DNA of 64,000 nucleotides from an uncultured Methanosarcinaceae archaeon (GCA_963847185.1 CAWJYV010000010.1:576001-640000), one strand, 5' to 3'. Counted from the stretch's first letter, positions 4,454 through 22,000 are shown. The notes: a model not told the origin generated them from the sequence alone. Numbers and translations: made by a program.

Positions 4454-5307
4454 CACCTGTTCACCTGCTTGGGAGGAATCAGCAATTCGGTAGAAGCTAC
4501 TCGATCCTGCCATCTGGCCGTTACATTAACTTTGAAGTGGTCTTCGCCTTCTCCAATTACAACATTCTTGACAGGCATATAGGACTCTCTTAATGGCGTT
4601 CCACGCGCAATTTCTATCATTGCATAGGGATAATCTGGCCATGTCCAGAGAGGAGTCTTATCATATTCTCCCACATCATAAAGCTCGGAAGATGTAAACA
4701 CTATCTTCCCGGTTCTCTCGTCTGTCACTGTTAGGTTCGTGGATACGTTCTCTGCAAAGCCTGATTCTTTGTTGACGATGTAGCCATAGATTCTGTAAAT
4801 ATCTGAGGTATTTTTGCTTTCCATTTCATATTCCAGCTTCAGGCAGATATTTTCGGGAGTTTCAGGAAGGGGAACCTCTACAAGACATGTGCCTTCATCA
4901 AGAAGCCTGCTGCTCTCAACAACCTTTACTTTTACCGGATATTCCCCTGGGAGTGCATATCCAATCCATACGCTGACTGAATTGTTTCCGGGAAGAAGAT
5001 TAATCGGTTTCTCAAGCGAAACTGACTCTTCATTCCCTGGGGTGGAATTGTTTGAGATTATCAATCTTGACGTTGAGTAGCTCTTTCCGTTCTCATCCAC
5101 AAAAGCATTCTCTACTTCAATCCACACGTCCACAGCTTTTGAATCATTACTCTTAAGCACTATGTCCAGCTGTCCTGATTGCCCGAGCTCAATAGGGGGA
5201 GCACTCATATTAGCAATTTTCACATCAGCCCCGCTTCCATACCATAAGATTCCAAAAGCAAGGATCAGGAGGGCAACTGATATAGAGATTAGAGTAATTT
5301 TTTTCAT
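4453..5307 (-). CDS. Membrane-anchored or secreted hypothetical protein (beta-rich)
   Basis: N-terminal hydrophobic helix; start and stop overlap with both neighbours, consistent with an operon. Confidence 0.7.
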   Translation of the reverse strand: MKKITLISISVALLILAFGILWYGSGADVKIANMSAPPIELGQSGQLDIVLKSNDSKAVDVWIEVENAFVDENGKSYSTSRLIISNNSTPGNEESVSLEKPINLLPGNNSVSVWIGYALPGEYPVKVKVVESSRLLDEGTCLVEVPLPETPENICLKLEYEMESKNTSDIYRIYGYIVNKESGFAENVSTNLTVTDERTGKIVFTSSELYDVGEYDKTPLWTWPDYPYAMIEIARGTPLRESYMPVKNVVIGEGEDHFKVNVTARWQDRVASTELLIPPKQVNR

Positions 5308-6011
5308 TTCATTTCCTCCTTTATCCCTGTGTTATTCTTAAGCTCATCAGCTATCGAAATGCAGTTGGTTAGTCCGTACTTTTTCTTTGTTATTATCCCT
5401 CTCTTTTCCAGGCTCATAAGAACCCTGGAAGCCTTGGCCTTGGAGAAATCAAGGGAATTGACGAGTTCATTCTGGAGAATTCTTCCTCCTCTTGATGCGA
5501 TTAGTTCAACAGCTTTTCTTTCGTCTCCTTCAAGCGCCCGCAAAAGGACATCCGTAGGGTCAATGTTAGCTCTGGCAGGCTTGAATTCTTCAACAGGGGC
5601 ATTTTCAAGGGAGACTTCCAAAATCTCCTCTGGAGCTTTCTCTGTGATAATATTGAGAGCTGTTACCTGTGCTGCCTGTCCTGTTCCTGGAAAAGCAGAG
5701 CCTTGGAGCCCCAGGAACGGTAGAACCTGAGCTAGCGCCAGGCCCCCTAAAAAACCGGAAAAAAGGAGAACATACGCTTCTTTTACAGTATAGACATAAG
5801 GGATATCCACAACCTTGAATGTGTCTCCTTCAAGCTGGATCACCACAGGCGAATCTTCAAGCAGAAGATTGATGGCTAAGGTGCTTGAAAGAAGCAGGAT
5901 ACCCACAGCAACTATGAATCTTTTCCGTTCCTGGGTCGTACTACCACCTTCATTTACTACCTCCACTATGTACGAAACAAATGTTATATTTTTACTATGA
6001 CCTGCCCTCAA
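5304..6011 (-). CDS. Membrane protein with C-terminal winged HTH (putative membrane-bound regulator); start uncertain
   Basis: Two TM segments followed by ILQNELVNSLDFSKAKASRVLMSLEKRGIITKKKYGLTN. Confidence 0.75.
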   Translation of the reverse strand: MRAGHSKNITFVSYIVEVVNEGGSTTQERKRFIVAVGILLLSSTLAINLLLEDSPVVIQLEGDTFKVVDIPYVYTVKEAYVLLFSGFLGGLALAQVLPFLGLQGSAFPGTGQAAQVTALNIITEKAPEEILEVSLENAPVEEFKPARANIDPTDVLLRALEGDERKAVELIASRGGRILQNELVNSLDFSKAKASRVLMSLEKRGIITKKKYGLTNCISIADELKNNTGIKEEMK

Positions 6012-6216
6012 GACGTCTCAAATATCTGAAACCAGTGGCGATGGATAGTGAAAAATAGTTCAAGCCAGTGTTTTGACAAACCAGATAGTTTGGCAAAGCT
6101 CGAGTAAATAACCTCAAAGAAGTTTCAAAGAAATAGTTGAAAAAAGTGACTTTTACAAGAAGTTCGACGATTAAAACTTAAAAAATAGAAGAAGGTAAAG
6201 GAGAAATTCCCTTACC

Positions 6217-7443
6217 TTAGATAGGAATAGATCTGCGTAGTTTCATCTCAGTTTCGCAGATTTCTCTTGTATCCCTTGCAATGGTAAGTTCTTCATTGGT
6301 TGGGATAACAAGGACCCTTATTTTCGAATCTGGAGTACTGATGTCGATTTCCTGGCCTCTGATTTTGTTCTTTTCCTCATCTATTTTTACGCCAAACTTA
6401 TCAAGGCCGGCAAGGATTCTTTTCCTGATGCTTGCGCTGTTTTCTCCGATGCCTGCGGTAAAGACTATCGCATCTGCACCATTAAGCACGGCTGAATACT
6501 CACCTATAACCTTCTTAATCTTATATGCGAAGACTTCAAGGGCAAGTTCGGCTCTCTCGTTTCCATGGGAGGCTGCCTCATCCAGGTCTCTGAAGTCGTT
6601 GCTGATTCCAGAGACTCCGAGCACCCCTGACTTCTTGTTCATAAGAGTGTCTACGTCCCTGCTTGACAGATGTTCTTTATCCATAATGTAGGGAACTACT
6701 GCAGGGTCAATAGAACCACATCTGGTTCCCATTGCAACTCCTTCAAGAGGGGTAAAGCCCATAGTGGTTTCAACGGATTTTCCGCCTTCAACAGCCGTAA
6801 TACTTGAACCGTTTCCAAGGTGACAGGTGATGACATTGGTTTCTTCTATGGGTTTTCCGAGCATAATAGCAGCTCTTTTGGAAACATAGAAGTGGGAGGT
6901 CCCGTGGAAGCCGTATTTCCTGATTCCATGTTTCTCGTATAGAGCATATGGTAGAGCATACATGTAGGCATATTTGGGTATTGTCTGGTGGAATGCTGTG
7001 TCAAATACAGCAACCATCGGTGTTCCAGGCATAATTTCAGCACATGCTTCAATACCCATCATGTTTGGAGGGTTGTGAAGAGGAGCCAGTTCAAAGCAGT
7101 CTTTAATCGCCTTTTCTACACTCTCATCAATTAAAGCCGACTTTGTGAACTTTTCTCCACCATGCACGACCCTGTGCCCGACCGCATTGATTTCTGTCAT
7201 ATCTTTAATGACACCAAATTCCGGGTCGGTGAGAGCCTTGACTACTTCCTCGAGAGCTGTCTTGTGAGTGGGCAGATCCGTCTGCTTTTCCAGCTTTTTA
7301 CCATCGAATCTCTTCTGGGTAATGATCGAATTGTCGATACCTATCCTCTCACAGAGACCTATTGCAAGGGGAGATTCATTACTCATGTCAATTAATTGGT
7401 ATTTGAGAGATGAACTTCCTGCGTTTATTACCAGTACTTTCAT
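6217..7443 (-). CDS. ackA: Acetate kinase
   Basis: [47 protein letters not shown]. Confidence 0.98.
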
Positions 7444-7560
7444 GCGTAAACCCCATTCATACATTGTTTTTTTTTACATCGATATTTATAGTAGAATAAT
7501 TATGTATGAAAGTTAATAAAAAGCTTCCTAAAATGTTCTCAAATATTGGAATGTTTACAA

Positions 7561-8565
<1,005 letters not shown>

Positions 8566-8801
8566 TCAACCAACCTCCGATATAATTAGAGTAACTTAAA
8601 TTAGCTGGCTCTTGATATATAAATTTACGTAAAATGCATAGAGATATATATAAATGTATAAAATATATATTTCTCCTGCTTAATATCCACACCAATTTCT
8701 TTTAGTACTACGAAAATATGATATGTTTTGCGGCAGACATTGTCATACTTGAAGTAATGTTACTGAACATAGATGACAAATTGATATAAAAGAATTCCGG
8801 A

Positions 8802-9377
8802 ATGAACATAATGAAGATACTAGGAATTTCAGGCAGCCCGCGAAAGGGCCAGAACTGCGAAAAAATGATCGGATCAGTCCTTGAAGTTGCGAAAGAAAGG
8901 GGATTTGAAACAGATAAAGTTCTTCTCTCCGCTTCAGAAGTTGGCCCCTGCAAAGCCTGCGGAGCTTGCAGAGAAAAAGACTTCTGCGTAATTGAAGACA
9001 GCATGGAAGAAATTTATGAAAAAATGAGAAATTCAGACGGCATAATCGTGGCAGCACCTGTATATATGGGAAATTATCCTGCGCAGCTTAAAGCTCTTTT
9101 TGACCGGAGTGTGCTTCTCCGCCGCAAAGATTTTGCACTCAAAAACAAAGTAGGAGCAGCTCTTTCTATTGGAGGTTCGAGAAACGGGGGGCAGGAAAAG
9201 ACCATACAATCCATTCACGACTGGATGCATATTCACGGGATGATTATTGTTGGAGACAACGCTCACTTCGGCGGAATTACCTGGAATCCCGTAGAAGAAG
9301 ATTCAATTGGAATGGAAACAGTTATCGAGACTGCAAAAAAGATGTGCGATGTCCTTGAGCTTATAGGAAGAAAATGA
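8802..9377 (+). CDS. isf: Iron-sulfur flavoprotein
   Basis: ISGSPRKG flavodoxin-like start, compact CKACGACREKDFC motif, GGSRNGGQE; divergent from pta-ackA as described for Methanosarcina thermophila isf. Confidence 0.9.
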   Translation: MNIMKILGISGSPRKGQNCEKMIGSVLEVAKERGFETDKVLLSASEVGPCKACGACREKDFCVIEDSMEEIYEKMRNSDGIIVAAPVYMGNYPAQLKALFDRSVLLRRKDFALKNKVGAALSIGGSRNGGQEKTIQSIHDWMHIHGMIIVGDNAHFGGITWNPVEEDSIGMETVIETAKKMCDVLELIGRK

Positions 9378-9441
9378 GGCGCCTGAAACGGGTAATATCC
9401 CTAATTTGACAGATTCTGCTAATTAATACAGTATTTTCTTA

Positions 9442-9679
9442 GAAGCTGTCTTAAAATTCAAACCATTTCTACATTTGGATAATAGGCATCGTTGATTTTA
9501 AACTTAGACCGTAAATTTATTACATCGGACTTGATCGCTCAAGTATAAAACCAAACACATTAGGCGTTATGGTTAAAATTCACATTTTAGATATTTAACA
9601 GTTTAATGCTACCGTTTTTCAGTTCAAATGGATAAGTCCGATCCAATTGTAGAATCAAATTTAATTTTAAGACACGCTC
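9442..9679. mobile_element. Non-autonomous MITE (IS5-like ends, TA target duplication)
   Basis: Left end GAAGCTGTCTTAAAATT and right end AATTTTAAGACACGCTC form an imperfect inverted repeat. TA lies on both sides (9440-41, 9680-81). 238 bp, no ORF. Confidence 0.7.
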
Positions 9680-9715
9680 TAAGAGGGTCACTGACTTCAA
9701 ACCGCTTGACTGTTT

Positions 9716-9832
9716 TTATGTTACGGTTACAAGTAAACCCCACATTGTATGATTACCAAATACTATGGCAAGAGCCATAATAATGAAAATGAAAATGACA
9801 AAAATTGCTTCGTTTGAAATGCTTTCGGTCAT
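9716..9832 (-). CDS. Small hydrophobic protein, 38 aa (MTESISNEAIFVIFIFIIMALAIVFGNHTMWGLLVTVT)
   Basis: Below the ORF-track cutoff. SD-like CAGGGAG upstream; one TM helix. Confidence 0.5.
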   Translation of the reverse strand: MTESISNEAIFVIFIFIIMALAIVFGNHTMWGLLVTVT

Positions 9833-9867
9833 GATATCTCCCTGTTGAAAGAGAAGTCACTGGCTTA

Positions 9868-9939
9868 TTAAACCCAATAAATCGCCCACATTAAAAAACA
9901 AAATACGACGACATAATATACCAATTCTTCTGGTGTCAC
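9868..9939 (-). CDS. Very small hydrophobic peptide, 23 aa (MTPEELVYYVVVFCFLMWAIYWV)
   Basis: GTG start, double TAA stop, TM-like composition, followed immediately by the CAGTGAC motif. Confidence 0.35.
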   Translation of the reverse strand: MTPEELVYYVVVFCFLMWAIYWV

Positions 9940-10285
9940 TTTATCTTCTCTTTAAGTCTTTCCGTAATAGCCATCGCGGCTGGCGTTTGCCTGTTAAGCA
10001 GTCCATTAATTGTCCAGTCGGAATTTAAAGGGCGCGAATTAGCCCATTTATTTTTATTATGTAATGCAAATAGGTCAAAACATTGTTACTGAACTACCAC
10101 GGGCTTTTAATGCGATCATGTCGGAAAATAAATTAGCCGGAAGCCTGCCCCGCGAAATATTAAGTTTTTTAATTAGTGGCTGTCCTTGAATGTAGGAGTC
10201 TGGATGGAAAAAATGGTTTATAGATGAAAATCCAGAGTTTATAGAAACATTGCATCAATGGGGTCAAAAACAGTAATGGGAGTGG

Positions 10286-10813
10286 GTGAAAATGGAGAAA
10301 TTTTCAATCTTAGCTTTGCTTTTATGTCTAACATCGTTAACAGGGGTAACTGACGCCGCTACAGTAACGGTTACGCCATCATTTCGTTACAACTGTTGTG
10401 GTGCTGACGGGCACCGGATTATTATGGTCAATTACAACAATGCAACGAATCCTTCGTACAGTGACCTCGTTGCTGCAGTAAAAGCTGATAACACAGACGC
10501 TCACATATACGGAATTAATACGTACAAATGTACTGATTACGCTGAAGAAATACACAATAACCTTGAAAAGAGAGGGATGAGATGCGGTATTGCAAGTGTA
10601 CAGTTTAATACAGGGAAAGGTCATGCTGTGAACGTCGTAAATACTACGGATAAAGGCAATGTGTATGTCGATTGTAGTGGAACAGAAGGAAACCCTGGAA
10701 TGGATACGATTGCAACAATAGAAGTCGGGAAGAAGTATACTATCACGCCAATTGACAACTCAGATTCAATTGTGAGAAATAGAATTGTTAAAAGTGTAAG
10801 AGTGTATTGGTGA
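10286..10813 (+). CDS. Secreted protein with a putative Cys-His-Asp (papain/transglutaminase-like) triad
   Basis: Signal peptide; YKCTDYA...GHAVN...VYVD pattern. Confidence 0.7.
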   Translation: MKMEKFSILALLLCLTSLTGVTDAATVTVTPSFRYNCCGADGHRIIMVNYNNATNPSYSDLVAAVKADNTDAHIYGINTYKCTDYAEEIHNNLEKRGMRCGIASVQFNTGKGHAVNVVNTTDKGNVYVDCSGTEGNPGMDTIATIEVGKKYTITPIDNSDSIVRNRIVKSVRVYW

Positions 10814-10976
10814 GGTAATTGATTCAGTGACCATTCTAAATAGGGTGTTAAAACGGCATCATCAAAAGCAATTCAAGAAATGATATATAATGCATTGGAA
10901 GGAACCGAGATTGGAAGATTAAGAGACCTTCACGGTAACACGGATTATGCTCTGATTGACAGAGAAAAATAATCGA

Positions 10977-11280
10977 ATGTCTTATCGAGCAGGATGCATC
11001 AAACTCTTTGACCCATCAAACAATCTAGTCTTGTCTAAGTCCTGCCAAAATATTCAATTGTGCCTCTGGTTTTCGATTCGTGCAAATCCTCAAGTTGCGC
11101 GTGTGGAGCTCAATTTATCTACTTCTTCAAAAACAGTCTTACATTAAAATCTCTTTTTGAAACAGCCCAAGGATATTGATTCCTTCATGATACAAATCCT
11201 TGCTAAGTATGGGAAAGGCTCCAAGTTTTGTGTGATTTATGCAGACAACTCTAACGAAAACATTGACTCTGAAATCGCTT
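10977..11280 (+). pseudogene. Frameshifted remnant of an unknown gene family (paralog of 14575..14830)
   Basis: RAGCIKLFDPSNNLVLSKSCQN...DIDSFMIQILAKYG aligns by eye with RAGTIKLYDRDNNLILSKCCQN...IDSFIETIYRKYG. Confidence 0.6.
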
Positions 11281-12253
11281 TTAATCGTTTACTCTTTCTC
11301 CGTAGGCATTTGTTTAACGATTTCGAGAATTTCCCGGCAAACCTTAACTTCCGCCTCTGCCTCAGCCAAGTGTTTTTCTGCATTGATTAAGTTGTGTTCA
11401 TAAGTGATTAGTAAATTAGCTCTTCTGGATTCAGTTAGTAATTCCATTTCATACCACCTAACAGAATTAAGACTGGACTGAACTTATATTGAGCGAACCA
11501 CGACAATAATATTGACAGGGTTATAGGAACAAAGCAATAGAACGGACGCTGTGACGAGCTTATAATGTGATCAAGCTGGAAACAGTGACCACTACGAAAG
11601 AAGGTCACTGGAAAAAAGTATTATTGAAACATATCCTTGTTTATCCCCAATTTGCCTTGTTAAGCTTTCAACAGCGATCTGTTGAACAAGGTCACTGAAG
11701 AATTCGAATGTTAACTATGTTCTTTCTACCCCTTACTTCTGTTATATTACTATCACTTCCAATAAAGAAAGTTCCAGTTTATACAGGTTTAAAAAGAGTA
11801 CCTTTTCGACCCAGATGATGGTTCTCCTGAATCAAGTGTTAAATGTTCTACATTCATTCGTTGTACCCCATCATCAAAATTCCAATGTCTTTTTCGATCT
11901 GATTACTTGACCGAACACTGGTTACAAAAACCCCATCGACAAACATTTGGGTAATGCCGTTTTTCGATTCAAAATCGAATATGTTACCGAACATTATATG
12001 TTTGTACATTTAGTTACTCTCACCCTGGATTTGACTATATGCTCACTGAATGTATCACTAATTCAGATCGAGTATCTCTATCCGTTTACACCTTTCTTCA
12101 ATAATGTACTCATTTGTAAGTATAAGCTACGAATTGAATCATTATTTTTACTCAGTAATGTATATGTGGATGTCATAGATTCAAAGCCTATTGAGTCAGT
12201 AACTTTCTGCAAACGTGTCGAACGTGGTCGCTGACTCCTGACCGCTCATTATA

Positions 12254-12427
12254 TCAATGACCCTCTTGAGATCCACTTTTTTGAATTGCAACATCTGCCG
12301 GACTTTTCATATTCGACAGAAACTCGATTAAATAATTGAGAAATTCTATTTCCACGTCTGCTCTTGATTTCAAAAATTCTGCGCTCCTTAGTCTTTCATT
12401 GTAATCAGCTGGTATTTCTCTTTTCAT
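12254..12427 (-). CDS. Small soluble helical protein, 57 aa (MKREIPADYNERLRSAEFLKSRADVEIEFLNYLIEFLSNMKSPADVAIQKSGSQEGH)
   Basis: Below the ORF-track cutoff. Open frame with a TATA-like element upstream; lies between two palindromes. Confidence 0.55.
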   Translation of the reverse strand: MKREIPADYNERLRSAEFLKSRADVEIEFLNYLIEFLSNMKSPADVAIQKSGSQEGH

Positions 12428-12660
12428 ATCCATATATCGTCTGATTAAAAATAGTCAAATTGGAATATATAGAAAGCTCACAGGGACAATTATTTTAATT
12501 CAGTGATAAGAACAGTAGAGAACTATGTTACTGAACTAATGTAGAATTTCTAATTTAACCACATGGAAAAATAGACTGAATGTGGAAATTGTCCTACTCA
12601 TTATAATTTTAAAAGAATAAATCGATAAACGCTTTTATAATCTCCAGACACGCTTTTAGT

Positions 12661-12756
12661 ATGTTTTATGAGTATTCGAGGTTGCTTTTCTTTCTGCCGT
12701 TTGTCGCACTATTTCTTTTCCTTGCCATCTTATTTGTGATGGCAATGAGGTTATGA
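12661..12756 (+). CDS. Small single-TM protein, 31 aa (MFYEYSRLLFFLPFVALFLFLAILFVMAMRL)
   Basis: TATA-like TTTTATAA about 25 nt before the ATG (leaderless geometry); T-rich tract after the stop; lies between two palindromes. Confidence 0.55.
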   Translation: MFYEYSRLLFFLPFVALFLFLAILFVMAMRL

Positions 12757-12889
12757 ATGTTAACTTTTTCTTGCTTTTCAGTGACCTTCCTGAATCGATA
12801 AAGGTTACTGACAAAAAAGCAGAGAACTATGTTTCTGAATAAAAAGAGTAATAAGGAACGTGGAGGGAGGGGAGGTGGTTATCCCCAAG

Positions 12890-13273
12890 TTACCTTCTGT
12901 TTCCGTGGTACTTGTTATAATCGCTGTACCATTTTCCATAATTTTTGTTCCATTTCCCGTAATTGTTGTTCCACTTCTTATAATTGTTTAACCATTTCAT
13001 ATACAGGCTGTACCAGTTGTTGTACTCTTTGCCATGCTTCTTCTCTCTGTCCCACTTTTTCTTCTCCCCTTCCCACTTTTTCTTCTCTCCGTCCCATTTT
13101 TTATTCTCATTTCCCCACTTTTTCTTCTCCCCATCCCATTTTTGTTTCTCGTTTCCCCACTGGCTCTCACCTTTCTGAGGTGCAGCATTTACTGATGCAA
13201 CTGTCACTGACAGCACAAAACAAATTGCAAGCAAAATACCCATTATTTTTTTTATTTTCAGCATATTTGCCAC
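12890..13273 (-). CDS. Secreted low-complexity protein with Trp heptad repeats
   Basis: Signal peptide (MLKIKKIMGILLAICFVLSVTVASVNA), then WGNEKQK-WDGEKKK-WGNENKK... and WNNNYGK-type heptads; 21-bp DNA periodicity. Confidence 0.8.
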   Translation of the reverse strand: MANMLKIKKIMGILLAICFVLSVTVASVNAAPQKGESQWGNEKQKWDGEKKKWGNENKKWDGEKKKWEGEKKKWDREKKHGKEYNNWYSLYMKWLNNYKKWNNNYGKWNKNYGKWYSDYNKYHGNRR

Positions 13274-13313
13274 TCCTAAAATTTGTTAACCCCATTATTA
13301 ATACTAATATTCA

Positions 13314-13351
13314 GGTTAATCTGGATTAATCTGAATTTATCCAGATTAACC
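13314..13351. repeat. 13-bp perfect inverted repeat upstream of the Trp-repeat gene
   Basis: GGTTAATCTGGAT-N12-ATCCAGATTAACC. Confidence 0.8.
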
Positions 13352-13969
13352 CAGATGCTTCTAAATGCACTATTTTTTTTTAAATTGTCTCCCAAATTAT
13401 TTTCATTTCGTTTTTTAATCGTTTTTCAACTACCCGTCAGCTGCCGGAGTTGATTTATTTTTGTCTTGCCGACTATCTTCGACTTAACAACCATAATATT
13501 GACCAAATTAAATAAAAAGATACTTATTATAACTACATATATAAAAGTAAGACCATTATTAAAATAAGTGTTATTAAAGTGTTTATTGGAAAAAAGAGGA
13601 TTCGTAGATACTTAGAGAACAAGCTATTGGTCTTTAAAGGGTTGATAGGCATAAAATAAGCGTTTGAACCTTTATTATTTGTGACCTTCCTGAACATAAG
13701 AAGAGGTCAATGACTCGGAACAACGAAGGTCAAACAACGAAGGTCAAACACCAAAGCGCAAACCCTAGATATAATACAATTTCAACGAATTCATCGAATG
13801 TAATATCAAACCCCTCCTTCAATCTGTCCAATACAACATTTCGATAAACGTGGAGTTTGAACTTATAATGGACGCATGGAGAAATTTATTTAAATCAAGT
13901 AATAGGAACAATGATACCACTTATATAATATTTAATGACTTTTTAGCTGTTCACATACATTAATAACTA

Positions 13970-14233
13970 ATGATGTCCATCAATATTCATGAGTTGAAAA
14001 CTATGGAAAAAATAGTCAAAATAGTAACTTATCTCTTAGCCGCTATAGGGCTCGCTTCTATTGTAAAACATATACACACCATGCGCTCAAAAGAAGGTTG
14101 TTGTTTGTGTGGTTGGCATAAAAAGAAAGAAGAAGAGGAAAAACCAACTGGTGCAACTGCATCGCATAAAACGAAAGAAGAAGAGGAAAAACCAACTGGC
14201 TCAAGATATGGTTCCAATCCGGTGAAATACTAA
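13970..14233 (+). CDS. Small membrane protein with a duplicated KEEEEKPTG motif (start possibly 14003)
   Basis: TM segment IVTYLLAAIGLASIV; GCCLCGWH; internal duplication with a 48-bp period. Confidence 0.65.
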   Translation: MMSINIHELKTMEKIVKIVTYLLAAIGLASIVKHIHTMRSKEGCCLCGWHKKKEEEEKPTGATASHKTKEEEEKPTGSRYGSNPVKY

Positions 14234-14574
14234 TATCCTGAATTCATTTTTATTCTTTAATCGAGTCTGGTTAACATTGCCGGTCAGGTATCTCTGGTAG
14301 CAAGCAGCTCCTCGTGAGCGCGCTCGTGAATGATATCAGGCAGTTGGAATCCATCTCAGTGTGAAGGAGACCTTTGTGGAGTTCTTGATGAGCTCGACGA
14401 GCTCGGGATCATCCCAGATCCTCTAACAATCCAGGCACTAACCGGGGCGTCCATCTGCTGGGATGATGATGCTTTTTGGGATGTTTCAGCCAGTAAAGTA
14501 TATGCGTAGGGTGGGGGCGTGCCGGCAGGATTCGTGCAGGTCTGGGAAGATACAATCCAGGATACCTCAAGAAA

Positions 14575-14830
14575 ATGCCAAAAAGAGCTGGCACTATCAA
14601 ACTGTACGACAGAGACAACAATCTAATCCTGTCCAAATGTTGCCAGAATACCCCTGCTTGTCTCTGGCTCACGATTTCTGCATCTAATCCCTGCAGTCGC
14701 GCTCGTGTAGTATTATATCACTACTTTTCCAAAAACAGTTTGACATTTAGTTCTTCTTTTGAATCAGCCCTTTGATATTGATTCTTTCATTGAAACAATA
14801 TACAGGAAGTATGGACAAGTTTCCCCTTTT
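14575..14830 (+). pseudogene. Remnant paralogous to 10977..11280
   Basis: Same alignment as for 10977; similarity continues past an in-frame TGA at 14773-14775. Confidence 0.55.
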
Positions 14831-15114
14831 TGAGTAGATTAGCGGGAAGAATTACCCTTTCAGACCTCAGGAGCAAGGTAAAGTATGGGGAGATAAACAA
14901 AAAAATAGGAGACATAGCTACCCGAAACCTTGCAGTTGCTTATCCTGACGAAAGCCTTGACATTATCCTCAATCGTCTTGCAGTAAAAGAAATAGGACGG
15001 CTTCCGGGAGTTGACAGAGAGGATAAAACAAAACTTCTTGGCCTGATCACTCGGAGCGATATCGTAAATTCGTATAACAAGAAAGTTGTCGAAAAATTCC
15101 GGGATCCATACTGA
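14830..15114 (+). pseudogene. 5'-truncated CBS-domain gene fragment (possibly the C-terminus of a ClC channel)
   Basis: VAYPDESLDIILNRL...IGRLPGVD...LLGLITRSDIV is about one and a half CBS domains; begins abruptly at the edge of the accessory block. Confidence 0.65.
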
Positions 15115-15223
15115 AAAACAGTAAACCTAAAAAGATCCCCTTGCAAAAAAGAATAGAACTAGAACGGATATATCCATATAACGGATATATTCTTGTATAT
15201 TCCTTACAAATGGTGGGGGCCTT

Positions 15224-18200
15224 ATGTCTGGAATTAAAAGCAGCTTAAGCGGGGAACTGGAAAGGTACCTGAGAAATATAATACTGGAGGATAGGGGTGA
15301 ATTATGTAGTTTTTACATAGAACTATCTGCCAGAGAAATGTTACCAATCACGCGCCGACTTTTTGAAGAAAAAGTTTCCCTTCCTCATGAGTTCGAACTC
15401 TCGGAACTTGTGGAAAAAGAAAAACATTTAATGATTTACGGAGAAGCAGGCCAGGGAAAAACAATAACCCTTAAATGGCTGAATACTGCCTTTTCCAGGA
15501 AGTTTCTTGAGAAAAAAGAAGGGTATATTCCAATTTATGCAGCCCTTGATTCCTATGTAAAAGGCTCTTTTTACGATAATTTGAAAGCAAGTGCAAAGAA
15601 AAAGGGTATTTCTGAGCCCAATTTCAGGAAGTTACTCGATGGAAGAGCTCTTTTTTTATTAGATGGGCTGGATCTACTAACGCCTGCTGAAAATTTTTCC
15701 CCTTTTGATGAGATCTCAGATTTTATTTCCGAGTATGAAGATTGTCGATACGTTATTACTTCAAGACCAGGGCCTTTTGGCAGTATAAAAAGTACGTTTG
15801 CACTGTCAGAGCTAGAAAAATTGTCAGATGAAAAAATAAGATATTTCATAGAAAAGCAAGTTCCGAATAAGAGACAGGCGAAGCTTTTGAAAGCCCGAAG
15901 CCTGAATGGAATACATTCAAAATCAATTTTAAGAAATCCGCTACTACTTACTCTCTGGATCAGAATTTCAATTGCTCGAATGGAAATGACAGAAAAAACA
16001 AGAAATAATCCAAACTTTATATCCCCCGACCTTATATCTTCTGAATTTATATCTTCCGACCTTATATCTTCCGAATTTATATCTTCCGACTTTACATCCT
16101 GCGATGTTGCTCCTTACGACTTTGTTTCCTCCAATCGGGCAGAATTATACCGAATTTTTATCTCTGAGCTTCTTAAAGACCCCCGACTAAGAGAAGATTT
16201 TTTAGATTCCGAGAACTTTCTCCTCTCAAAAATAAACGATAGGAAAACAAATTCTAAAAACACAACCTCTGAAAAATTGACTTTTGAAAGGGCAGATCTA
16301 AAAAGAGTAGATCTTGAAAATGTTCTAATGAACCTGGCCTTCATAATTCAGTGCAGGAACAGGATTTCATGTAAATATAGTTACGCTCTTAAGGTGGCAG
16401 AAGAGTGTGTACGCAGTACTTCTGGAAGAGTAAAAGCCAGAAACCTTCTTCACGCCTGTTTTAAGCATGGGCTTCTTACCAGAAAGGGTTCTGAAGTAAG
16501 ATTTGGGATAGACAGATCTTTTCAGGAATATTTTGCAGCTCTAAAGCTGAAAACATACTTTGAAAGCGGAGTGGATATCTCTGAAGCATTCAAGCATCCG
16601 AGATGGGAAAATGTAGTCTTATTTACTTCGGAACTTGTCGAATCAGGAGAGGAACTGGTGGACTCTATAGTTTCAAGCGGAAATTTATATCTTGCCTCAA
16701 AATGTGCCATGAAAGCCAGTCCTGAAACGAAAGAAAAATTATGCACACTTCTTTCCGGGAAACTCGATAGTAGATATATGGTGGAGAAAATAAGGGCAAT
16801 CCAAAGCCTTGGAAGGCTGGGAGCCTGTGGAATAGGAGCTAATTCGGGAGCACTTGAAGACGAAGATATAGGAGTTAGAAGAGAAGCTGTAAGGGTTCTT
16901 AGGGAAACAAAATCAGAAATAGCACTCTCCTTTCTTGAAGCTGCACTTAGAGATGAAGATTACTCTGTGAGGATAGAAGCTGTAAAGGCTTTAGGCACTA
17001 TAGGATCCGAGAAAGCTGTGGAATTGCTCTCAAATACATTTGAGGATAAAATCCGTGCTGTCCGTCTTGAAGCAACCGATGCGCTGGCGCAGATCGGATC
17101 AGAAAAGGCACTTGAAGTCCTTGTTTCCGCACTTGGGGCAAAAGACGATTTTGTTCGTTTTGGAGCTATAGGAGCGCTTGGCAGAGCAAACTCCCAGAAA
17201 GTGGCTGAGGCCCTTATAAAAGCATTTAAGGAAGAGGACAAGCTTACTCGACTGGGAGCTGCCGAGGCTCTGGGTCAGATGAAATCGGAAAGAGCTGTTG
17301 AACCTTTTGTAGACGCTCTGGGAGATAAAGATGAGTTTGTACGATGGATAGCTACAAAGACTCTTAGAGAAATAAAATCTGACAAAACCTACGATACATT
17401 CATCAATATGCTTGGGGATAAAAGCCGCTTCGTCCGTCGGGAAGCCGCAAAGGGGCTTGGTGTGCCAGGGGCCGATATAACACTTGAACCTCTCGTTTCT
17501 GCGCTTTCTGATGAAGATGAATATGTAAGAAAAACAGCCGCGGAATCTCTGGGGGAAATAGGGTCTGAAACAGCTGCTAAAACTTTGATAAATAAGCTTA
17601 ACGACAAAAGCCATTTCGTCCGGCTGGAGGCTGCAAGATCCCTTGGAATGATAAAAGTCAGGAAAGCTGCTACCCCTCTTCTTTTTGCACTGGGAGATGA
17701 AAATCATTTTGTAAGAAAGGAAGCTGCAAACGCACTCGGACAGCTGGAATCAGGAAGAGTTTTTGAGCAGCTTGTTTATGCTTTTAAGTCAGGAGATCGC
17801 CTTAGAAGGCAGGGAGCAGTAAGGGCCCTGGGACAGAAAAATCTGGATGGGATTCCGGACAGGATCTCGGATAGAGTCTTCGATTTTCTTGACAGTGCTC
17901 TTAATGACGAAGATAAGTTTGTACGGAAAGAAGCAGCAAAAGCTCTGGGAAATATCTCTGAAAGCAGATCTGAAAGAGCTTTTGAATCCCTGATTAATGC
18001 CCTTGATAATGAAGATAGTGAGGTCAGGAGGCTTGCAGCCGAATCCCTGGAATTTTTTAACTCTGAAGAAGCCGTTCCTCAACTGATATATGCACTTAAG
18101 TCCGAAGATGCAATTGTACGAAGGTCTGCAGCTAAAGCCCTTGATCAAATACACTCTAAAAAAGCCCTCAAGCCCTTGATAGATGTTTTAATTTTCGACA

Positions 18201-18679
18201 ACGATGGTTCTGTGAAAGAAGAAGCTGCAAGAGCTCTTGGAAAACTAAAAGCTAAAAAAGCTGTAGAGCCTCTTATTGACGCTCTAATGGATGAAAATAA
18301 TGAAGGAAGATGGGGAGCAGCAGAAGCTCTGGGCCGGCTTAAAGCTGAAAATGCAGTCGATAATCTCATCATTGCTCTTGAGGATGCAGATGAATTCACC
18401 CGGCTGGCTGCTGCAAAAGCCCTGGGGAGAATAAAATCAAAAAAAGCAGTAGAACCCCTCATCAGCACACTTTATGATTGGAACCGCTTCGTAAAAGCAG
18501 AAGCTGCAGGCGCTCTCAGTGAAATCTGTACGAAAGAGGATGAAGCACAATTGAAAGCTTTACTTGACTCAGAATACGAATTTGCAGCAAATCTTGCCTT
18601 TGAGATCCTGGAAAGAATCGAAATAAAGGAAATATTAAAAACCAGGCTGTTTTTAGATTTATATAAGGAAAAAGATTGA
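15224..18679 (+). CDS. NACHT NTPase + HEAT-repeat protein (NLR/STAND-like)
   Basis: Walker A GEAGQGKT, Walker B LLDGLD, ITSRP, NPLLL, SFQEYFAA, then a long array of about 31-aa HEAT repeats. Confidence 0.9.
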   Translation: MSGIKSSLSGELERYLRNIILEDRGELCSFYIELSAREMLPITRRLFEEKVSLPHEFELSELVEKEKHLMIYGEAGQGKTITLKWLNTAFSRKFLEKKEGYIPIYAALDSYVKGSFYDNLKASAKKKGISEPNFRKLLDGRALFLLDGLDLLTPAENFSPFDEISDFISEYEDCRYVITSRPGPFGSIKSTFALSELEKLSDEKIRYFIEKQVPNKRQAKLLKARSLNGIHSKSILRNPLLLTLWIRISIARMEMTEKTRNNPNFISPDLISSEFISSDLISSEFISSDFTSCDVAPYDFVSSNRAELYRIFISELLKDPRLREDFLDSENFLLSKINDRKTNSKNTTSEKLTFERADLKRVDLENVLMNLAFIIQCRNRISCKYSYALKVAEECVRSTSGRVKARNLLHACFKHGLLTRKGSEVRFGIDRSFQEYFAALKLKTYFESGVDISEAFKHPRWENVVLFTSELVESGEELVDSIVSSGNLYLASKCAMKASPETKEKLCTLLSGKLDSRYMVEKIRAIQSLGRLGACGIGANSGALEDEDIGVRREAVRVLRETKSEIALSFLEAALRDEDYSVRIEAVKALGTIGSEKAVELLSNTFEDKIRAVRLEATDALAQIGSEKALEVLVSALGAKDDFVRFGAIGALGRANSQKVAEALIKAFKEEDKLTRLGAAEALGQMKSERAVEPFVDALGDKDEFVRWIATKTLREIKSDKTYDTFINMLGDKSRFVRREAAKGLGVPGADITLEPLVSALSDEDEYVRKTAAESLGEIGSETAAKTLINKLNDKSHFVRLEAARSLGMIKVRKAATPLLFALGDENHFVRKEAANALGQLESGRVFEQLVYAFKSGDRLRRQGAVRALGQKNLDGIPDRISDRVFDFLDSALNDEDKFVRKEAAKALGNISESRSERAFESLINALDNEDSEVRRLAAESLEFFNSEEAVPQLIYALKSEDAIVRRSAAKALDQIHSKKALKPLIDVLIFDNDGSVKEEAARALGKLKAKKAVEPLIDALMDENNEGRWGAAEALGRLKAENAVDNLIIALEDADEFTRLAAAKALGRIKSKKAVEPLISTLYDWNRFVKAEAAGALSEICTKEDEAQLKALLDSEYEFAANLAFEILERIEIKEILKTRLFLDLYKEKD

Positions 18680-18762
18680 AAAAACACAAGAGAGAGTAAA
18701 ATTTAGAGGATAAATAAACGACCAAACGGCCTTATCCTCCATACTGAATTGTTTCTGTCACA

Positions 18763-18824
18763 CCCGAATTCCGCTTCGGGAGCACGGGGTCCTTTTCGCT
18801 TCGCTCAAGAGGACTAATTTATGG
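18763..18824. repeat. Dispersed non-coding repeat, copy 1
   Basis: CCCGAATTCCGCTTCGGG hairpin plus TTCGCTCAAGAGGACTAATTTATGG, similar to 43270-43430. Confidence 0.7.
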
Positions 18825-19028
18825 CTATAACAGTTATTTTCAGTCAAGAGACATAAATTCTAGATCATTTGACCCCTACAACCTTATTCACTATATTGGG
18901 TCGTTCCTGTTACGCTCGACGCAGGAGAGCGGTCTTTCCCGCGCAAAATAGAAAGAATTAATTTAGATGGTTTCAATAAGGGAGCTGATCGAGAAATAAA
19001 GAAGTAAATTTTTACCAACAGGGATAAA

Positions 19029-22000
19029 ATGGTTATTTCAGAATTAGCTTTAGGTTTTCTTACTAACCTGATATATGATTCTTCCAAGAAAATCCCTAAA
19101 GAAATTTTTGATACTTACTCGAAAGTATATGAAAAGGCAATTGAAGAGTTTTCAAATAAGAATTATAAATTGAATGGAATACAAATTGATACTTTTTTTC
19201 ATCAGAAAAACGTGGAAACAGCAATCGAAGAATACCTGAAAAACCCGGATAAAGCTTGATTGTTCAAATATTTTAATTCAAGAGTTTTTTGAATTATTCA
19301 GTGAGGAAGATTTCTCCCGCGAAGATGCAGACTTAATCTTAAACACTTTTTTGAAATTCTAGATGCTGAGATTGAGAAATATCCTGAACTTATAATATAT
19401 CTTGATCATTACTTAGCAAAACAAACATATGAAAAGTTCAAGAGACAAATCAAGGAGTTCATGAGCTATCTCAAGAATCAAAGAAATATCTCAAACAGTT
19501 CAGGAAATACACAAAGTGGTTAATGGAAGTAGAGCAGATAAAAGTAGAAAAGAATTAGATGCAGATTTCGATGAATCAATAAAAAAATACTTGAACAAAA
19601 TAATAGATGAAGAAGGCAGAACCGAAATTAGTGAAGTATATACCGAACTTTCAGCCAAAGAAATTTTGCCAATAACCCTCAAATTCCGCGATGAGGAAAA
19701 CGATAAAACACAAGAATTTGAGGTTCTTGAGCTTGTTGAAAAAGAAGAAAAGCTTATCATTTCCGGGGAATCAGGTTCTGGAAAAACAACTACACTTAAA
19801 TGGTTAAATTACACCTTTGCCACAAAGTTATCTTGAGGGAAAAAACGAAAACATTCCCCTGTACATTGAATTAAATTCTTACATAGGTGAAGAGGTTCAT
19901 AAAGAAGCCTTTTGATGCATACGTCACGATGAAAGCAGAAGGGAAAGAATATCAGAGGACACTCTTAAAAACGATACTTAAAGGAAAAGCAATTATTCTT
20001 CTCGATGGCTTTGACCTACTTTCACCTACCGATGAGTTCTATCCCTATGACAAAATTTCCAATTTCATTTCCGAATACAGCAACTGCAGATTTGTTATTT
20101 CTTCAAGACCAGGTTTTTTTGAGAGTATAAAAAGTAGATTTCAAAGTTTCGGAATTGGAAAAACTAACCGATGAAAAAATCGAGATATTCATAAATAGCT
20201 ATGTTTCAGAATAAAGAACTAGAAAATATTCTCAATAGATAAAATCCTTGAGCAATCAACAGTTAAAATCTATATTTTCAAACCCAATGATGCTTTACAT
20301 CGCCATCAAAGTTGCAATGGAGAGAAAAGACAAGTCTGATGACTTACTGCCTTCAAACCGTTCTGAATTGTATGAAGCTTTTATTTCTACTCTTTTCAGT
20401 CATCAAGAAAAAAAAGGAAAAATCTCCATGCAGACAGAATACAGATTGAGAATGCTCTTACTGATCTATATTTTAAACTTCAGTGCAGGAATGAAGTTTC
20501 ATGCAAATATTCTGAAGCTCTAAATATTGTCAAAAAAAGCTCTGAAGATTCTATATTCAGAAAAATCACTCCAGGAAATTCTTGAAGATTGTTTCAAACT
20601 TGGACTTCTTAATAAAAAATGATTCTCATGTATCATATGGAATCCACCAGTCTTTTCAGGAATATTTTGCAGCTATAAAGTTAAAAGAGCTTTTTGAAAG
20701 TGGATTTGATGTATCAGAGGCTTTCAGTCATCCAAAATGGGAAGAAGTCGTGATATTTACCTCTGAAATGTGAATTCGGATTTAATTGACGAATTTATTG
20801 ATTCAATGATTTTAAAAGGTGAACTTTTCCTAGCTTCAAAGTGTGTAAATAAAGCAAGTGATGAAATAAAAGAAAAACTGTGTGCTTTACTTGCTGATAA
20901 AATGGATTCTAAGTATAAATTGGAAAAAATAAATTCGATTGAAAGCTTGGAAAGAATTGGAATTATCGGAATCAGTATAATTACCAAAGTCCTGAAAGAT
21001 GAAGAATCGAAGATGTGCGGTGGAATGCGGCAAAGGCACTTGGAAATATAAAATCAGAGAAAGCAGTGCAGTTACTAATAAACGCATTGAAAGATGAAGA
21101 TAAATATATGCGGCGGAATGCGGCAGAAGCACTTGGAAAATAAGATCGGAAAAAGCAGTCCAGCCACTAATCAACGCACTGAAAGATGAAAATGAAGATG
21201 TGCGGCAGGAATGCGGCAGAGGCACTTGGAAATATAAAGTCGGAGAAAGCAGTGCAACCACTAATCAACGCATTGAAAGATGAAAATCCATATGTGCGGC
21301 AGAAGTGCGGCAGAGGCACTTGGAAATATAAAGTCAGAGAAAGCAGTCCAGCCACTAATCAACGCACTGAGAGATGAAGAATTCGTATGTGAGGGGAAGT
21401 GCGGCAAAAGCACTTGGAAATATAAAGTCGAAGAAAGCTATGCAGCTGTTAATCAATCTACTGAAAGATGAAACTACATATATGAAGATGGAGTGCATCA
21501 GAGGCACTTGGAAATATAGAATCAGAAAAAGCTGTGCAGCCGTTAATCAATGCACTGGAAGATGAAGACTATCATTTGTGCGGTGAGAGTGCGGCAGAAG
21601 CACTTGGAAATATAAAGTCGGAAAAAGCTGGTCCAACCATTGATTAATGCACTGAAAGATGAAGATTATGATGTGCGGGAACGTGCGGCAGAAGCACTTG
21701 GAAATATAAGTCGGAGAAAGCGTCCAGCCACTGATCAACGCACTAAGAGATAAAAATGTATGTGAGGGAATGCGGCAGAGGCACTTGGAAATATAAAATC
21801 GGAGAAAGCCGTGCAGCCACTGATCAACGCACTGAAAGATGAAAATTCGTATGTACGGCGGAGATGCGGCAAAGGCACTTGGAAATATAAAATCGGAGAA
21901 AGCCGTCCGACCACTGGTCAATGCACTGAAAGATGAAAATGAATGTGTACGAAGGAGGGCGGCAAAGGCACTTGGAAATATAAGATCGGAGAGAGCTGTG

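Follow-up and report, generated by a model that had tools for sequence, protein, structure and literature searches.

What organizes an array of very small genes in an archaeal chromosome, and by what route do its units come to be reordered? The question is raised by an island of ~5.4 kb, lying between a flavoprotein gene (8802-9377) and the remnant of a ClC/CBS channel gene, in the genome of an uncultured Methanosarcinaceae archaeon (4.04 Mb in 10 contigs, encoding McrA). The whole stretch of DNA analyzed, here called the window, is 64,000 nucleotides (nt) long (G000:C10:576001-640000), and positions are counted from its first letter. Within the island, short open reading frames (ORFs) are interspersed with an imperfect palindrome of conserved arms and variable loop, hereafter the hairpin. 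An earlier interpretation made from the sequence alone (the sequence-only reading) proposed that the palindromes serve an integron-like or repetitive extragenic palindrome (REP)/HUH-type gene-capture system acting in trans. Our own reading, offered tentatively and with somewhat less than even confidence, is that they are lineage-specific regulatory stem-loops inside duplicated small-gene modules that have been shuffled through shared sequence, in the manner of the promoter/stem-loop (PeSL) cassettes of T4-type phages.

A repeated palindrome is concentrated in one island of the window

All six two-armed palindromes and the four single arms (9686, 9856, 10084 and 10824) listed by the sequence-only reading are present when the window is read directly. 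Five palindromes are solid (11583, 11672, 12193, 12499 and 12778) and the sixth (13681) is weak, with only 6-7 pairs, fold z-scores of -0.45 on the + strand and -0.85 on the - strand, and a 5' half common to hairpin 5 and to a copy on another contig, C4:66501. The arms are near the consensus TCAGTGACC/GGTCACTGA and enclose unrelated loops of 10-22 nt. Hairpin 2 is likely a tandem copy of hairpin 1, judging from the AAGCT that precedes both, while hairpin 3 has homologues at C3:14863 and, more weakly, at C1:174871. The single arm at 9686 was considered as one half of a hairpin split by a miniature transposable element with inverted repeats (MITE), a candidate that was rejected on finding the partner arm absent across the MITE.

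The clustering is pronounced. The window has 11 copies of the 8-mer CAGTGACC where 0.73 are expected; none of 100 shuffles reaches 11, and 7 of these copies fall in 9686-12786. Likewise, the two-armed pattern CAGTRAY-N8-30-RTYACTG has 3 matches in the window against 0.05 expected. Pattern, consensus-arm and covariance-model scans found no two-armed copy elsewhere in the window, as had been noticed at the outset.

The palindrome is rare and restricted in lineage

Across the genome, the same 8-mer is present in 81 copies (1.28 per 64 kb), and inspection by eye of the genome-wide list of positions revealed no other cluster of equal density. A consensus-arm scan of the genome returned 15 matches, four of them in the island; those at C3:14863, C4:66501 and C10:158707 look homologous. 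An alignment (A1) was made of the six window hairpins and six more copies in this genome, and the covariance model built from it recovered the 12 training sites (E up to 0.035) together with four weak extras (E 0.23 to 9.7) in 4.04 Mb. The genome total is ~14 hairpin copies, mostly in three AT-rich islands: that of the window and two others, at C7:798.9-801.3 kb and C4:65.9-67.8 kb, which were located by BLAST of 9300-15300 against the genome and of island against island. The covariance-model scan suggested by the sequence-only reading thus finds hits that cluster in small-gene islands, and the motif is not spread uniformly through the genome.

In a panel of 59 genomes of the genus, one per species and including the genome studied here, the covariance model matched at E up to 0.01 in only 2 of the 58 other species. 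Two tandem hairpins of the form TAGTCAGTGAC(C)T..AGGTCACTGGTT, preceded by a T-run and followed by A-runs, are present in G065, and a variant, CTGTGACC..GGTCACAG, is carried by G012. At G065:C124 (L019), ~1465-1550, the tandem hairpins read CAGTGACTT..AAGTCACTG and CAGTGACCT..AGGTCACTG, with the same arms. The occurrence of these arms in G065 implies that the arm sequence is older than the species studied here or has moved beyond it. The bare core GTGACC-N6-30-GGTCAC occurs at the level of a reversed-pattern control across the 59 genomes. Because copies in the genome are few, only 2 of 58 other species have a match and the core is at control level, the motif is rare and lineage-restricted and is no general signal.

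Searches further afield were negative. Among viral contigs, the pattern TCAGTGACC-N8-30-GGTYACTGA was found in 38, one site each and no array, which we treated as unrelated; the metagenome pattern CAGTGACCTTCC-N6-26-GGTYACTG was found in 36 contigs, many of them G+C-rich and none similar by blastn to window positions 5001-20000. The island DNA had no match in plasmid and phage collections searched in distant mode, Rfam had none on 8000-16000 at E up to 1, and no tRNA or tmRNA was found in the window.

The mismatches point to a fold of one strand

The 12 aligned hairpins provide 120 arm cells, of which 85 are Watson-Crick pairs, 16 are G.U on the + strand, 3 are A.C (and would be G.U on the - strand), 13 are other combinations and 3 are gaps; once two obvious copy pairs are merged, the ratio of G.U to A.C is about 14 to 3 by hand count. 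The earlier remark that many mismatches are G-T pairs is upheld by this imbalance. Paired cells make up 86% of the arms in A1 and 17-40% after one arm is slid by 1-3 columns. Identity of the arms to the TCAGTGACC/GGTCACTGA consensus is 85%, and the loops have a pairwise identity of 49%, versus 44% for shuffled loops, with genuine loop similarity confined to four small subgroups of hairpins. All six window copies and the C7, C4 and C3 copies share an orientation (aligned plus/plus by BLAST), and in three hairpins the + strand fold is slightly stabler than its complement (-14.4 vs -13.2, -16.2 vs -13.1 and -18.9 vs -16.1 kcal/mol). Because of this G.U bias on the + strand and the common orientation, the alignment makes a single-stranded fold of the + strand likely.

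On the + strand, A-runs follow 5 of the 12 hairpins and T-runs precede. Since a bacterial-type intrinsic terminator has a G+C-rich stem and then a T-run, the reverse of the order seen here, such terminators were ruled out as the identity of the hairpins.

Promoter-like units accompany the hairpins

Alongside the hairpins is a second repeated element of ~120-190 nt, the P-unit (promoter-like unit), whose 10 copies were found only in the three islands. Its consensus, GAACTTATA..GCGAA..CATTTATTTTAAT..GTGATA.GAA..GTTACTGAA..TTCTAATGCGATCA, can be read as two back-to-back archaeal TATA boxes, that is, as a putative divergent promoter. To the left of each P-unit is a small ORF on the - strand, and to the right a small ORF or a hairpin. 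Of the 16 hairpin or arm sites listed, 6 have a TATA-like box upstream of the 5' arm at a distance of 0-10 nt, and hairpin 1 has one at 14 nt; such a box stands immediately before hairpin 6 and before several hairpins of other contigs. The interval from the TATA-like box to the conserved GTTACTGAA in P-unit copy 3 is occupied by hairpin 4.

The three islands are mosaics with variable junctions

The order of modules differs among the three islands, and two rearrangements are especially well resolved. The first is a 0.9-kb block shared with the C7 island, both ends of which lie inside hairpins; at its left junction, only the A-rich AAAAGC is common to the A-run following hairpin 5 and the loop of the C7 hairpin. 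The second is a segment of ~304 nt (the 31-aa ORF and hairpin 5) that is absent from the otherwise matching loci on C7 and at G009:C198 and is bracketed by the direct repeat AGAGAACTATGTT[A/T]CTGAA. In each, a predicted start-site leader forms the beginning and a hairpin the end. Of the 14 block ends in the window, 7 by hand count lie in a hairpin or at most 14 nt from one, versus ~8% expected by length.

The exact positions of these ends, however, vary. Between C3 and hairpin 3, similarity stops with the outer edge of the 5' arm; at the right end of the 0.9-kb block it reaches 4-5 nt into the loop; at hairpins 1 and 5 it continues for 10-20 nt after the 3' arm. The paralogous block ends define no fixed crossover point within the hairpins. 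Junction positions that vary in this way suggest that repeated sequence served as homology rather than as the target of a site-specific enzyme, and reordered modules with varying block ends at hairpins are what homology-driven shuffling would be expected to produce. The proposed organization therefore stands in part: the island is indeed a small-gene mosaic, and many of its unit borders carry the palindrome, but not with an exact, fixed breakpoint.

The nearest species genome, G009, is 97% identical over pta-isf, 81% complete and in 520 contigs; comparison with it is limited to locus C198, its contig ending at the MITE and the C7- and C4-type islands being unassembled. For a comparison among strains, no sequencing run contains more than 36% of the sampled words of the stretch, and contigs from four runs of four metagenome studies were compared over 8000-16000. 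Among the differences listed (40 of 445), these contigs are ~97% identical and collinear across the hairpins: X1, for instance, has 65 differences over 10416-12804, X3 extends across 12606-12974 and 13398-14001, and X5 across 12483-12849. Each of the 15 joints listed, of 16, falls in the MITE (9462-9660) and none at a hairpin. Contig breaks at 12804 and 13691 coincide with the edges of the duplicated block, and we interpret them as assembly breaks at the repeat. In this limited comparison, the expectation that strain differences would break at the hairpins is not borne out. Two small differences lie nearby: the 14-nt tandem repeat AACAACGAAGGTCA, present twice just past hairpin 6 (13719-13755), has one copy fewer in X1 and X3, and X3 has an 18-nt insertion at 12889, beside the stop of the 127-aa gene.

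The island itself is lineage-specific. In 4 of the 6 related complete genomes examined, the flavoprotein gene is followed by an intact ClC/CBS channel gene of 525-569 aa, and the comparison with the remnant in the window indicates that the island has replaced the first ~423 codons of that gene. The right edge of the island (~14815) is without a hairpin.

A PeSL-like model and its competitors

In the model that we tentatively prefer, each module would consist of a ~120-190-nt unit of two back-to-back archaeal promoters, the leftward one driving a tiny gene (a member of the 50-70-aa family or a membrane peptide) and the rightward one producing a single transcript. The stem-loop would have one of two places, the interval from the TATA-like box to GTTACTGAA or the distal end of the rightward unit, and would form in the + strand, most likely in the RNA that the rightward promoters produce. 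In that RNA it could demarcate or shield the ends of transcripts and separate convergent and divergent units that are closely packed. Stem-loops and promoter units would be the only sequence common to otherwise unrelated modules and so could act as patches of homology, by which modules may have been copied, inserted and reordered between the three islands through homologous or microhomology-driven recombination, without a dedicated site-specific enzyme.

A number of observations weigh against this model. Covariation is near nil, with one pair changed on both sides and the observed level of pairing reached by 61 of 500 shuffles. As RNA, only the hairpins at 11583 (z -4.1) and 12778 (z -4.9) fold clearly beyond shuffled sequence; the other four of the six in the window, at z -0.5 to -1.9 on the + strand, are not clearly stabler than shuffles. 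With T-runs, where runs exist, before and A-runs after the hairpins on the + strand, archaeal transcripts might end before the stem-loop, and in hairpins 4 and 6 the 5' arm lies upstream of the predicted start site and hence outside the RNA. TATA-like strings are common in DNA of such composition (32-38% G+C), a terminator scan, which accepts loops of 3-8 nt only, calls none of the hairpins, and no sequencing run containing the stretch is RNA. Nor do the hairpins qualify as marks of gene 3' ends, a role that we rejected: the earlier observation that several lie close to a stop codon is literally true but not above chance, with an ORF of at least 23 aa ending within -9 to 30 nt of 8 of the 14 hairpins and of 44.5% of 3000 random positions in the same islands. 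Finally, arm sequence that is conserved with almost no compensatory change implies a sequence-specific reader, whether protein or RNA, and a purely structural role leaves that conservation unexplained.

Are the hairpins simply debris? They could be functionless, decaying relics, for instance former terminal repeats of some tiny element, which recent segmental duplication took along and which cluster through common descent only. Such an origin, which we regard as unlikely, would suit the low copy number in one lineage, the degeneracy of many copies and the junkyard character of a region where a MITE and the remnant of a gene accompany a decayed duplication of 262 nt. Decay alone, however, accounts poorly for arms whose conservation from one hairpin subgroup to another far exceeds that of loops and flanks, for a mismatch spectrum biased by strand towards pairing, and for the same arms in other contexts in two species (the G065 tandem pair and the G012 CTGTGACC variant). 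Alternatively, the palindromes could act as duplex DNA, as operators or roadblocks for a lineage-specific dimeric regulator of the small-gene modules; conserved half-sites with near-zero covariation would fit, and several palindromes do lie where an archaeal repressor site classically stands, after a TATA-like box and before the presumed start. Yet a half-site spacing of 10-22 nt is too variable for a rigid dimer, an excess of G.U over A.C is unexpected under selection on duplex DNA, the core is at control level in the genus, and the ORFs of at least 70 aa on C4 and C7 share no regulator-like gene (translations judged by eye, with no family search run); we give this explanation very little credence.

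Distinctly doubtful, too, is the idea that the modules are arrays resembling type I toxin-antitoxin loci, in which overlapping or convergent RNAs restrain tiny membrane peptides, and in which the palindrome and the identical GTTACTGA at presumed 5' ends would allow RNA-RNA pairing or a 5'-3' fold-back that controls translation or stability. Several strongly hydrophobic ORFs of 25-38 aa are indeed present, some with paralogues (33 aa with 25 aa on C4; 30 with 35 aa on C4), in modules tandemly duplicated in intergenic islands. Moreover, the 3' arm GGTTACTGA equals GTTACTGAA at the predicted rightward start, so that 5' ends could pair with 5' arms, and the TATA-like boxes before hairpin 6 and C4:66501 might send antisense RNA through the 33-aa and 25-aa ORFs. 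In Methanosarcina mazei, pairs of small-protein RNA and antisense RNA, one with a membrane peptide, are reported in the available text of a preprint (bioRxiv 10.1101/2025.10.28.685009); such small membrane-peptide loci therefore exist in the genus, although that text describes no such palindrome. Against the idea, the ORFs scanned match no known toxin family, no RNA run contains the stretch, hairpins also flank non-hydrophobic genes (59, 127 and 175 aa), and complementarity is automatic for any repeated palindrome.

The possibility closest to the sequence-only reading, which we rate as highly unlikely, is that the hairpins are recombination sites of a trans-acting recombinase (integron-like, like that of neisserial intergenic mosaic elements (NIME) with their dRS3 repeats, or like the REP-associated tyrosine transposase (RAYT)) that reads the folded + strand and moves units between islands. 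The G.U bias and common orientation fit recognition of single-stranded DNA, the arm sequence is conserved as for a protein-read site, and the differing module order, the 0.9-kb block (95% identical, both ends inside hairpins) and the bracketed ~304-nt unit missing at the C7 and G009 loci could all be its products. A narrower form, in which a single-strand recombinase acting in trans would move self-contained units running from start-site leader to terminal hairpin both to a site just downstream of a resident promoter and between islands, fits the two best-resolved events because both run from leader to hairpin; we consider it very improbable all the same.

As noted at the outset, the window encodes no recombinase, and neither the tyrosine nor the Y1/HUH families have a match on its contig. 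The tyrosine recombinase family PF00589 has 5 matches in the genome, four on C1 and a below-cut-off fragment at C4:48242, ~18 kb from the C4 island, none of them beside an array, and PF01797 (Y1/HUH) has 6 on C1, C8 and C4. The Y1/HUH genes were ruled out as users of these hairpins: two intact ones adjoin different hairpins, CGGACGGCC..GGCCGTCCG. PF01548 (IS110/Piv), with matches in 6 of 14 control genomes, has none in this genome, and no serine recombinase was found anywhere in it. The copies number only ~14, the island genes run in both orientations, seemingly with promoters of their own, and no strain joint listed is at a hairpin. The gene-capture proposal gains partial support from the hairpins at many unit borders, the clustering of the motif and the block ends at hairpins; given the varying junctions, the other hairpins of the Y1 genes, the two gene orientations, the collinear strains and the bare right edge, we do not regard active gene capture in trans as demonstrated.

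Small genes and neighbours of the island

The features of the island are collected in Table 1. The sequence-only reading placed one short gene in most intervals between palindromes, and this holds as far as the mosaic of small-gene units is concerned, but its 57-aa ORF (11435-11608, - strand), which overlaps a hairpin and a P-unit, is probably not a gene. The 52-aa and 59-aa ORFs are better supported because they have paralogues. By BLASTP, the 52-aa protein pairs with proteins of 43 aa on C7 (73% identity) and 68 aa on C4 (38%), the 59-aa protein with the same 68-aa protein (34%), a 58-aa protein on C4 with one of 59 aa on C7, and a 30-aa protein on C4 with one of 35 aa on C4 (47%). The 52-aa and 59-aa proteins gave no direct BLASTP alignment and are linked only via the C4 68-aa protein. 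A search of 5.8 billion proteins yielded one homologue cluster for the 52-aa protein, and the ESM Atlas gave no usable match for the 59-aa protein.

Pfam and NCBIfam had nothing above cut-off for the ORFs scanned except the CBS remnant and the flavoprotein. The 175-aa protein has sub-threshold likeness to transglutaminase-like proteins (PF06035, E 0.011) and papain-fold cysteine peptidases (PF15644, E 0.077), and scans of genome contigs and metagenome contigs found no relative of it. The 127-aa protein contains seven 21-nt repeats encoding the motif KKKW-D/E-GE and, like the 87-aa protein, belongs to a multi-copy family found in many genomes of the genus. At 13309-13356, 40-80 nt upstream of the 127-aa gene, are nested near-perfect palindromes (GGTTAATCTGGATTAAT/ATTTATCCAGATTAACC) that are kept in the C7 copy; they look like operators and are unrelated to the main motif.

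Table 1. Hairpins, single arms, promoter-like units, ORFs and other features of the island, in order of position
Feature	Position	Strand	Remarks
Single arm GGTCACTG	9686-9693	.	Abuts right end of MITE (9437-9685)
38-aa hydrophobic ORF	9716-9832	-	Predicted; flanked by arm-like GGTCACTGA (9686) and GTCACTGG (9856)
Single arm GTCACTGG	9856-9863		Arm-like
P-unit copy 1	10008-10130	+	Read as back-to-back TATA-like boxes; includes arm at 10084-10093
Single arm TGTTACTGAA	10084-10093		Arm-like, inside P-unit copy 1
175-aa ORF	10286-10813	+	Looks secreted by eye; apparent signal peptide
Single arm TCAGTGACC	10824-10832		Begins 10 nt past stop of 175-aa ORF
52-aa ORF	11289-11447	-	Small protein family, paralogues on C7 and C4
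P-unit copy 2	11442-11624	+	Hairpin 1 at 3' end
Hairpin 1	11583-11610	+	CAGTGACC-N12-GGTCACTG, then A6; fold z -4.1; at 3' end of P-unit copy 2
Hairpin 2	11672-11697	+	CAGCGATC-N10-GGTCACTG; fold z -1.1
Hairpin 3	12193-12237	+	(GAG)TCAGTAACT..GGTCGCTGA(CTC), i.e. GAGTCAGTAACT..GGTCGCTGACTC
59-aa ORF	12254-12433	-	Family of 52-aa ORF, via C4 68-aa member
P-unit copy 3	12422-12573	+	Contains hairpin 4 (12499-12535)
Hairpin 4	12499-12535	+	TTCAGTGATA..TGTTACTGAA
31-aa hydrophobic ORF	12661-12756	+	Forms ~304-nt segment with hairpin 5
Hairpin 5	12778-12811	+	TCAGTGACCTT-N12-AAGGTTACTGA; T-runs before, A6 after; fold z -4.9
0.9-kb block	12809-13707	.	127-aa gene and upstream region; 94-95% identical to C7:799165-800070
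127-aa ORF	12890-13273	-	Looks secreted (by eye); 98.4% identical to C7 127-aa copy
Hairpin 6 (weak)	13681-13713	+	GTGACCTTC..GAGGTCAATGA; TATA-like CCTTTATTATT directly upstream
33-aa hydrophobic ORF	13730-13831	-	75% identical to 25-aa ORF beside hairpin C4:66501
P-unit copy 4 (partial)	13856-13908	+	Upstream of 87-aa ORF (13970-14233)
87-aa ORF	13970-14233	+	Looks membrane-bound; two 48-nt repeats
ClC/CBS channel-gene remnant	14815-15105	+	Last 100 codons (residues 424-523); right island edge

In the left part of the island is a 250-nt MITE (9437-9685) whose termini are the inverted repeats TAGAGGCTGTCTTAAAATT.../...AATTTTAAGACACGCTCTA; at least 8 full-length copies, and partial matches besides, occur in the genome at 70-98% identity, and other species of the genus have many copies as well. 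Modules 2-4 of the island are bracketed by a decayed direct repeat of ~262 nt (10976-11237 and 14574-14840; 68% identical), the second copy of which runs into the channel remnant, suggesting that the island may have grown by duplication at the channel-gene junction. The sequence downstream of the ClC/CBS gene differs among related species. Adjoining the island in the window is an ORF of 1151 aa (15224-18679, + strand) with, by eye, an N-terminus like that of a P-loop NTPase and many HEAT-type repeats; tblastn places relatives of it downstream of the flavoprotein gene in 3 of the 6 related genomes examined, with identities of 68% in L080 and 62% in L078 over the full length and 57% in L077 over the part reached.

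Relationship to known systems

In bacteria and phages, much work has been done on repeated palindromes that organize variable arrays of genes: REP and bacterial interspersed mosaic elements (BIME), NIME, attC and PeSL. We found no report of such an array-organizing palindrome in Methanosarcina in the literature searched. The islands described here would offer a small and tractable methanogen case, with ~14 sequence-conserved stem-loops, a promoter-like unit, orphan peptides and proteins with paralogues across islands, and a reshuffled mosaic. Archaeal termination is not known to need more than T-runs, and if the stem-loops insulate or stabilize transcripts, archaea would have in them an unusual 3'-end or insulator element of a sequence-specific kind. 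Should they guide recombination, they would represent a new route for the assembly of archaeal small-gene islands, and under either role the arms imply a sequence-specific reader. Were the trans-recombinase interpretation true, archaea would possess a hairpin-based cassette system with no relation to attC/IntI, REP/RAYT or dRS3.

The sites themselves are not attC, REP or dRS3. An attC site is roughly 57-141 nt long, with two paired sets of boxes, among them the core boxes R'' (RYYYAAC) and R' (GTTRRRY), and extrahelical bases. The islands resemble attC arrays, including clusters of attC sites lacking an integron integrase (CALIN), in having co-oriented folded sites that punctuate arrays of small, mostly unknown genes and favour one strand. 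In contrast to attC, the hairpins are 26-45 nt long with a single stem of 8-11 bp and no core boxes; the absence of RYYYAAC/GTTRRRY ends noted earlier is confirmed, the arms TCAGTGACC/GGTCACTGA and their GTTACTG being unlike GTTRRRY. Island genes also run both ways with promoter-like units of their own, no crossover point is fixed, and no IntI is nearby as judged by PF00589 only. A different parallel is the par/Fst locus of pAD1, a type I toxin-antitoxin locus whose convergent RNAs share a stem-loop. Tandem intergenic modules, hydrophobic peptides of ~30 aa and a palindrome between convergent units are common to both, whereas the island palindrome has its T-run first and its A-run after, the reverse of a bidirectional intrinsic terminator.

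REP and BIME sequences, too, are imperfect palindromes, 20-40 nt in length, that lie outside genes, often in clusters, and act as single strands, according to the available text of two accounts (PMC2817692, PMC3733652). Those texts put REP copy number at usually more than 100 per genome (PMC2817692), describe a GTAG or CGTC tag at one end (PMC3733652) and have REPs flanking the RAYT gene. Here, by contrast, there are ~14 copies, the Y1 genes carry other hairpins, and neither tag was seen in the hairpin alignment or its flanks. The NIME arrays, as presented in the available text of Bentley et al. 2007 (PMC1797815), share with our islands conserved inverted arms around a variable centre, a layout in which these set variable segments apart, differing order and content, and a proposed role as recombination substrates. 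According to the same source, dRS3 is 20 bp long (ATTCCC-N8-GGGAAT), one strain has 611 RS elements, the repeat is used by a known phage recombinase, and the segments between are non-coding repeats of 50-150 bp. The hairpins differ in their arms of 8-11 nt, their centres of 10-22 nt, their gene-carrying units and a genome with no IS110-type recombinase.

The closest functional analogue that we found, by comparison of their organization, is the PeSL cassette of T4-type phages. In the available text of Arbiol et al. 2010 (PMC2839356), a PeSL is a promoter and a stem-loop in variable relative placement; PeSLs concentrate by orphan genes in hyperplastic regions of the phage genomes and mediate modular shuffling. 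The islands of this archaeon parallel that description in a putative combination of promoter-like and stem-loop motifs, in its variable placement beside small orphan genes of a variable region (the island replaces a conserved gene, and its scanned ORFs have no family), in the G-T pairs of the stems, and in a shuffling of modules, with order differing among the islands and 7 of 14 block ends at hairpins, whose junctions lie in the motif and would arise via homology without a dedicated recombinase. They differ in residing in an archaeal chromosome, in having TATA-like boxes and not sigma-70 promoters, and in the ~14 copies with sequence-conserved arms; promoter and terminator activity and mini-circles belong to the phage side of the comparison. 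The palindromes of this methanogen island may be an archaeal counterpart of the phage PeSL.

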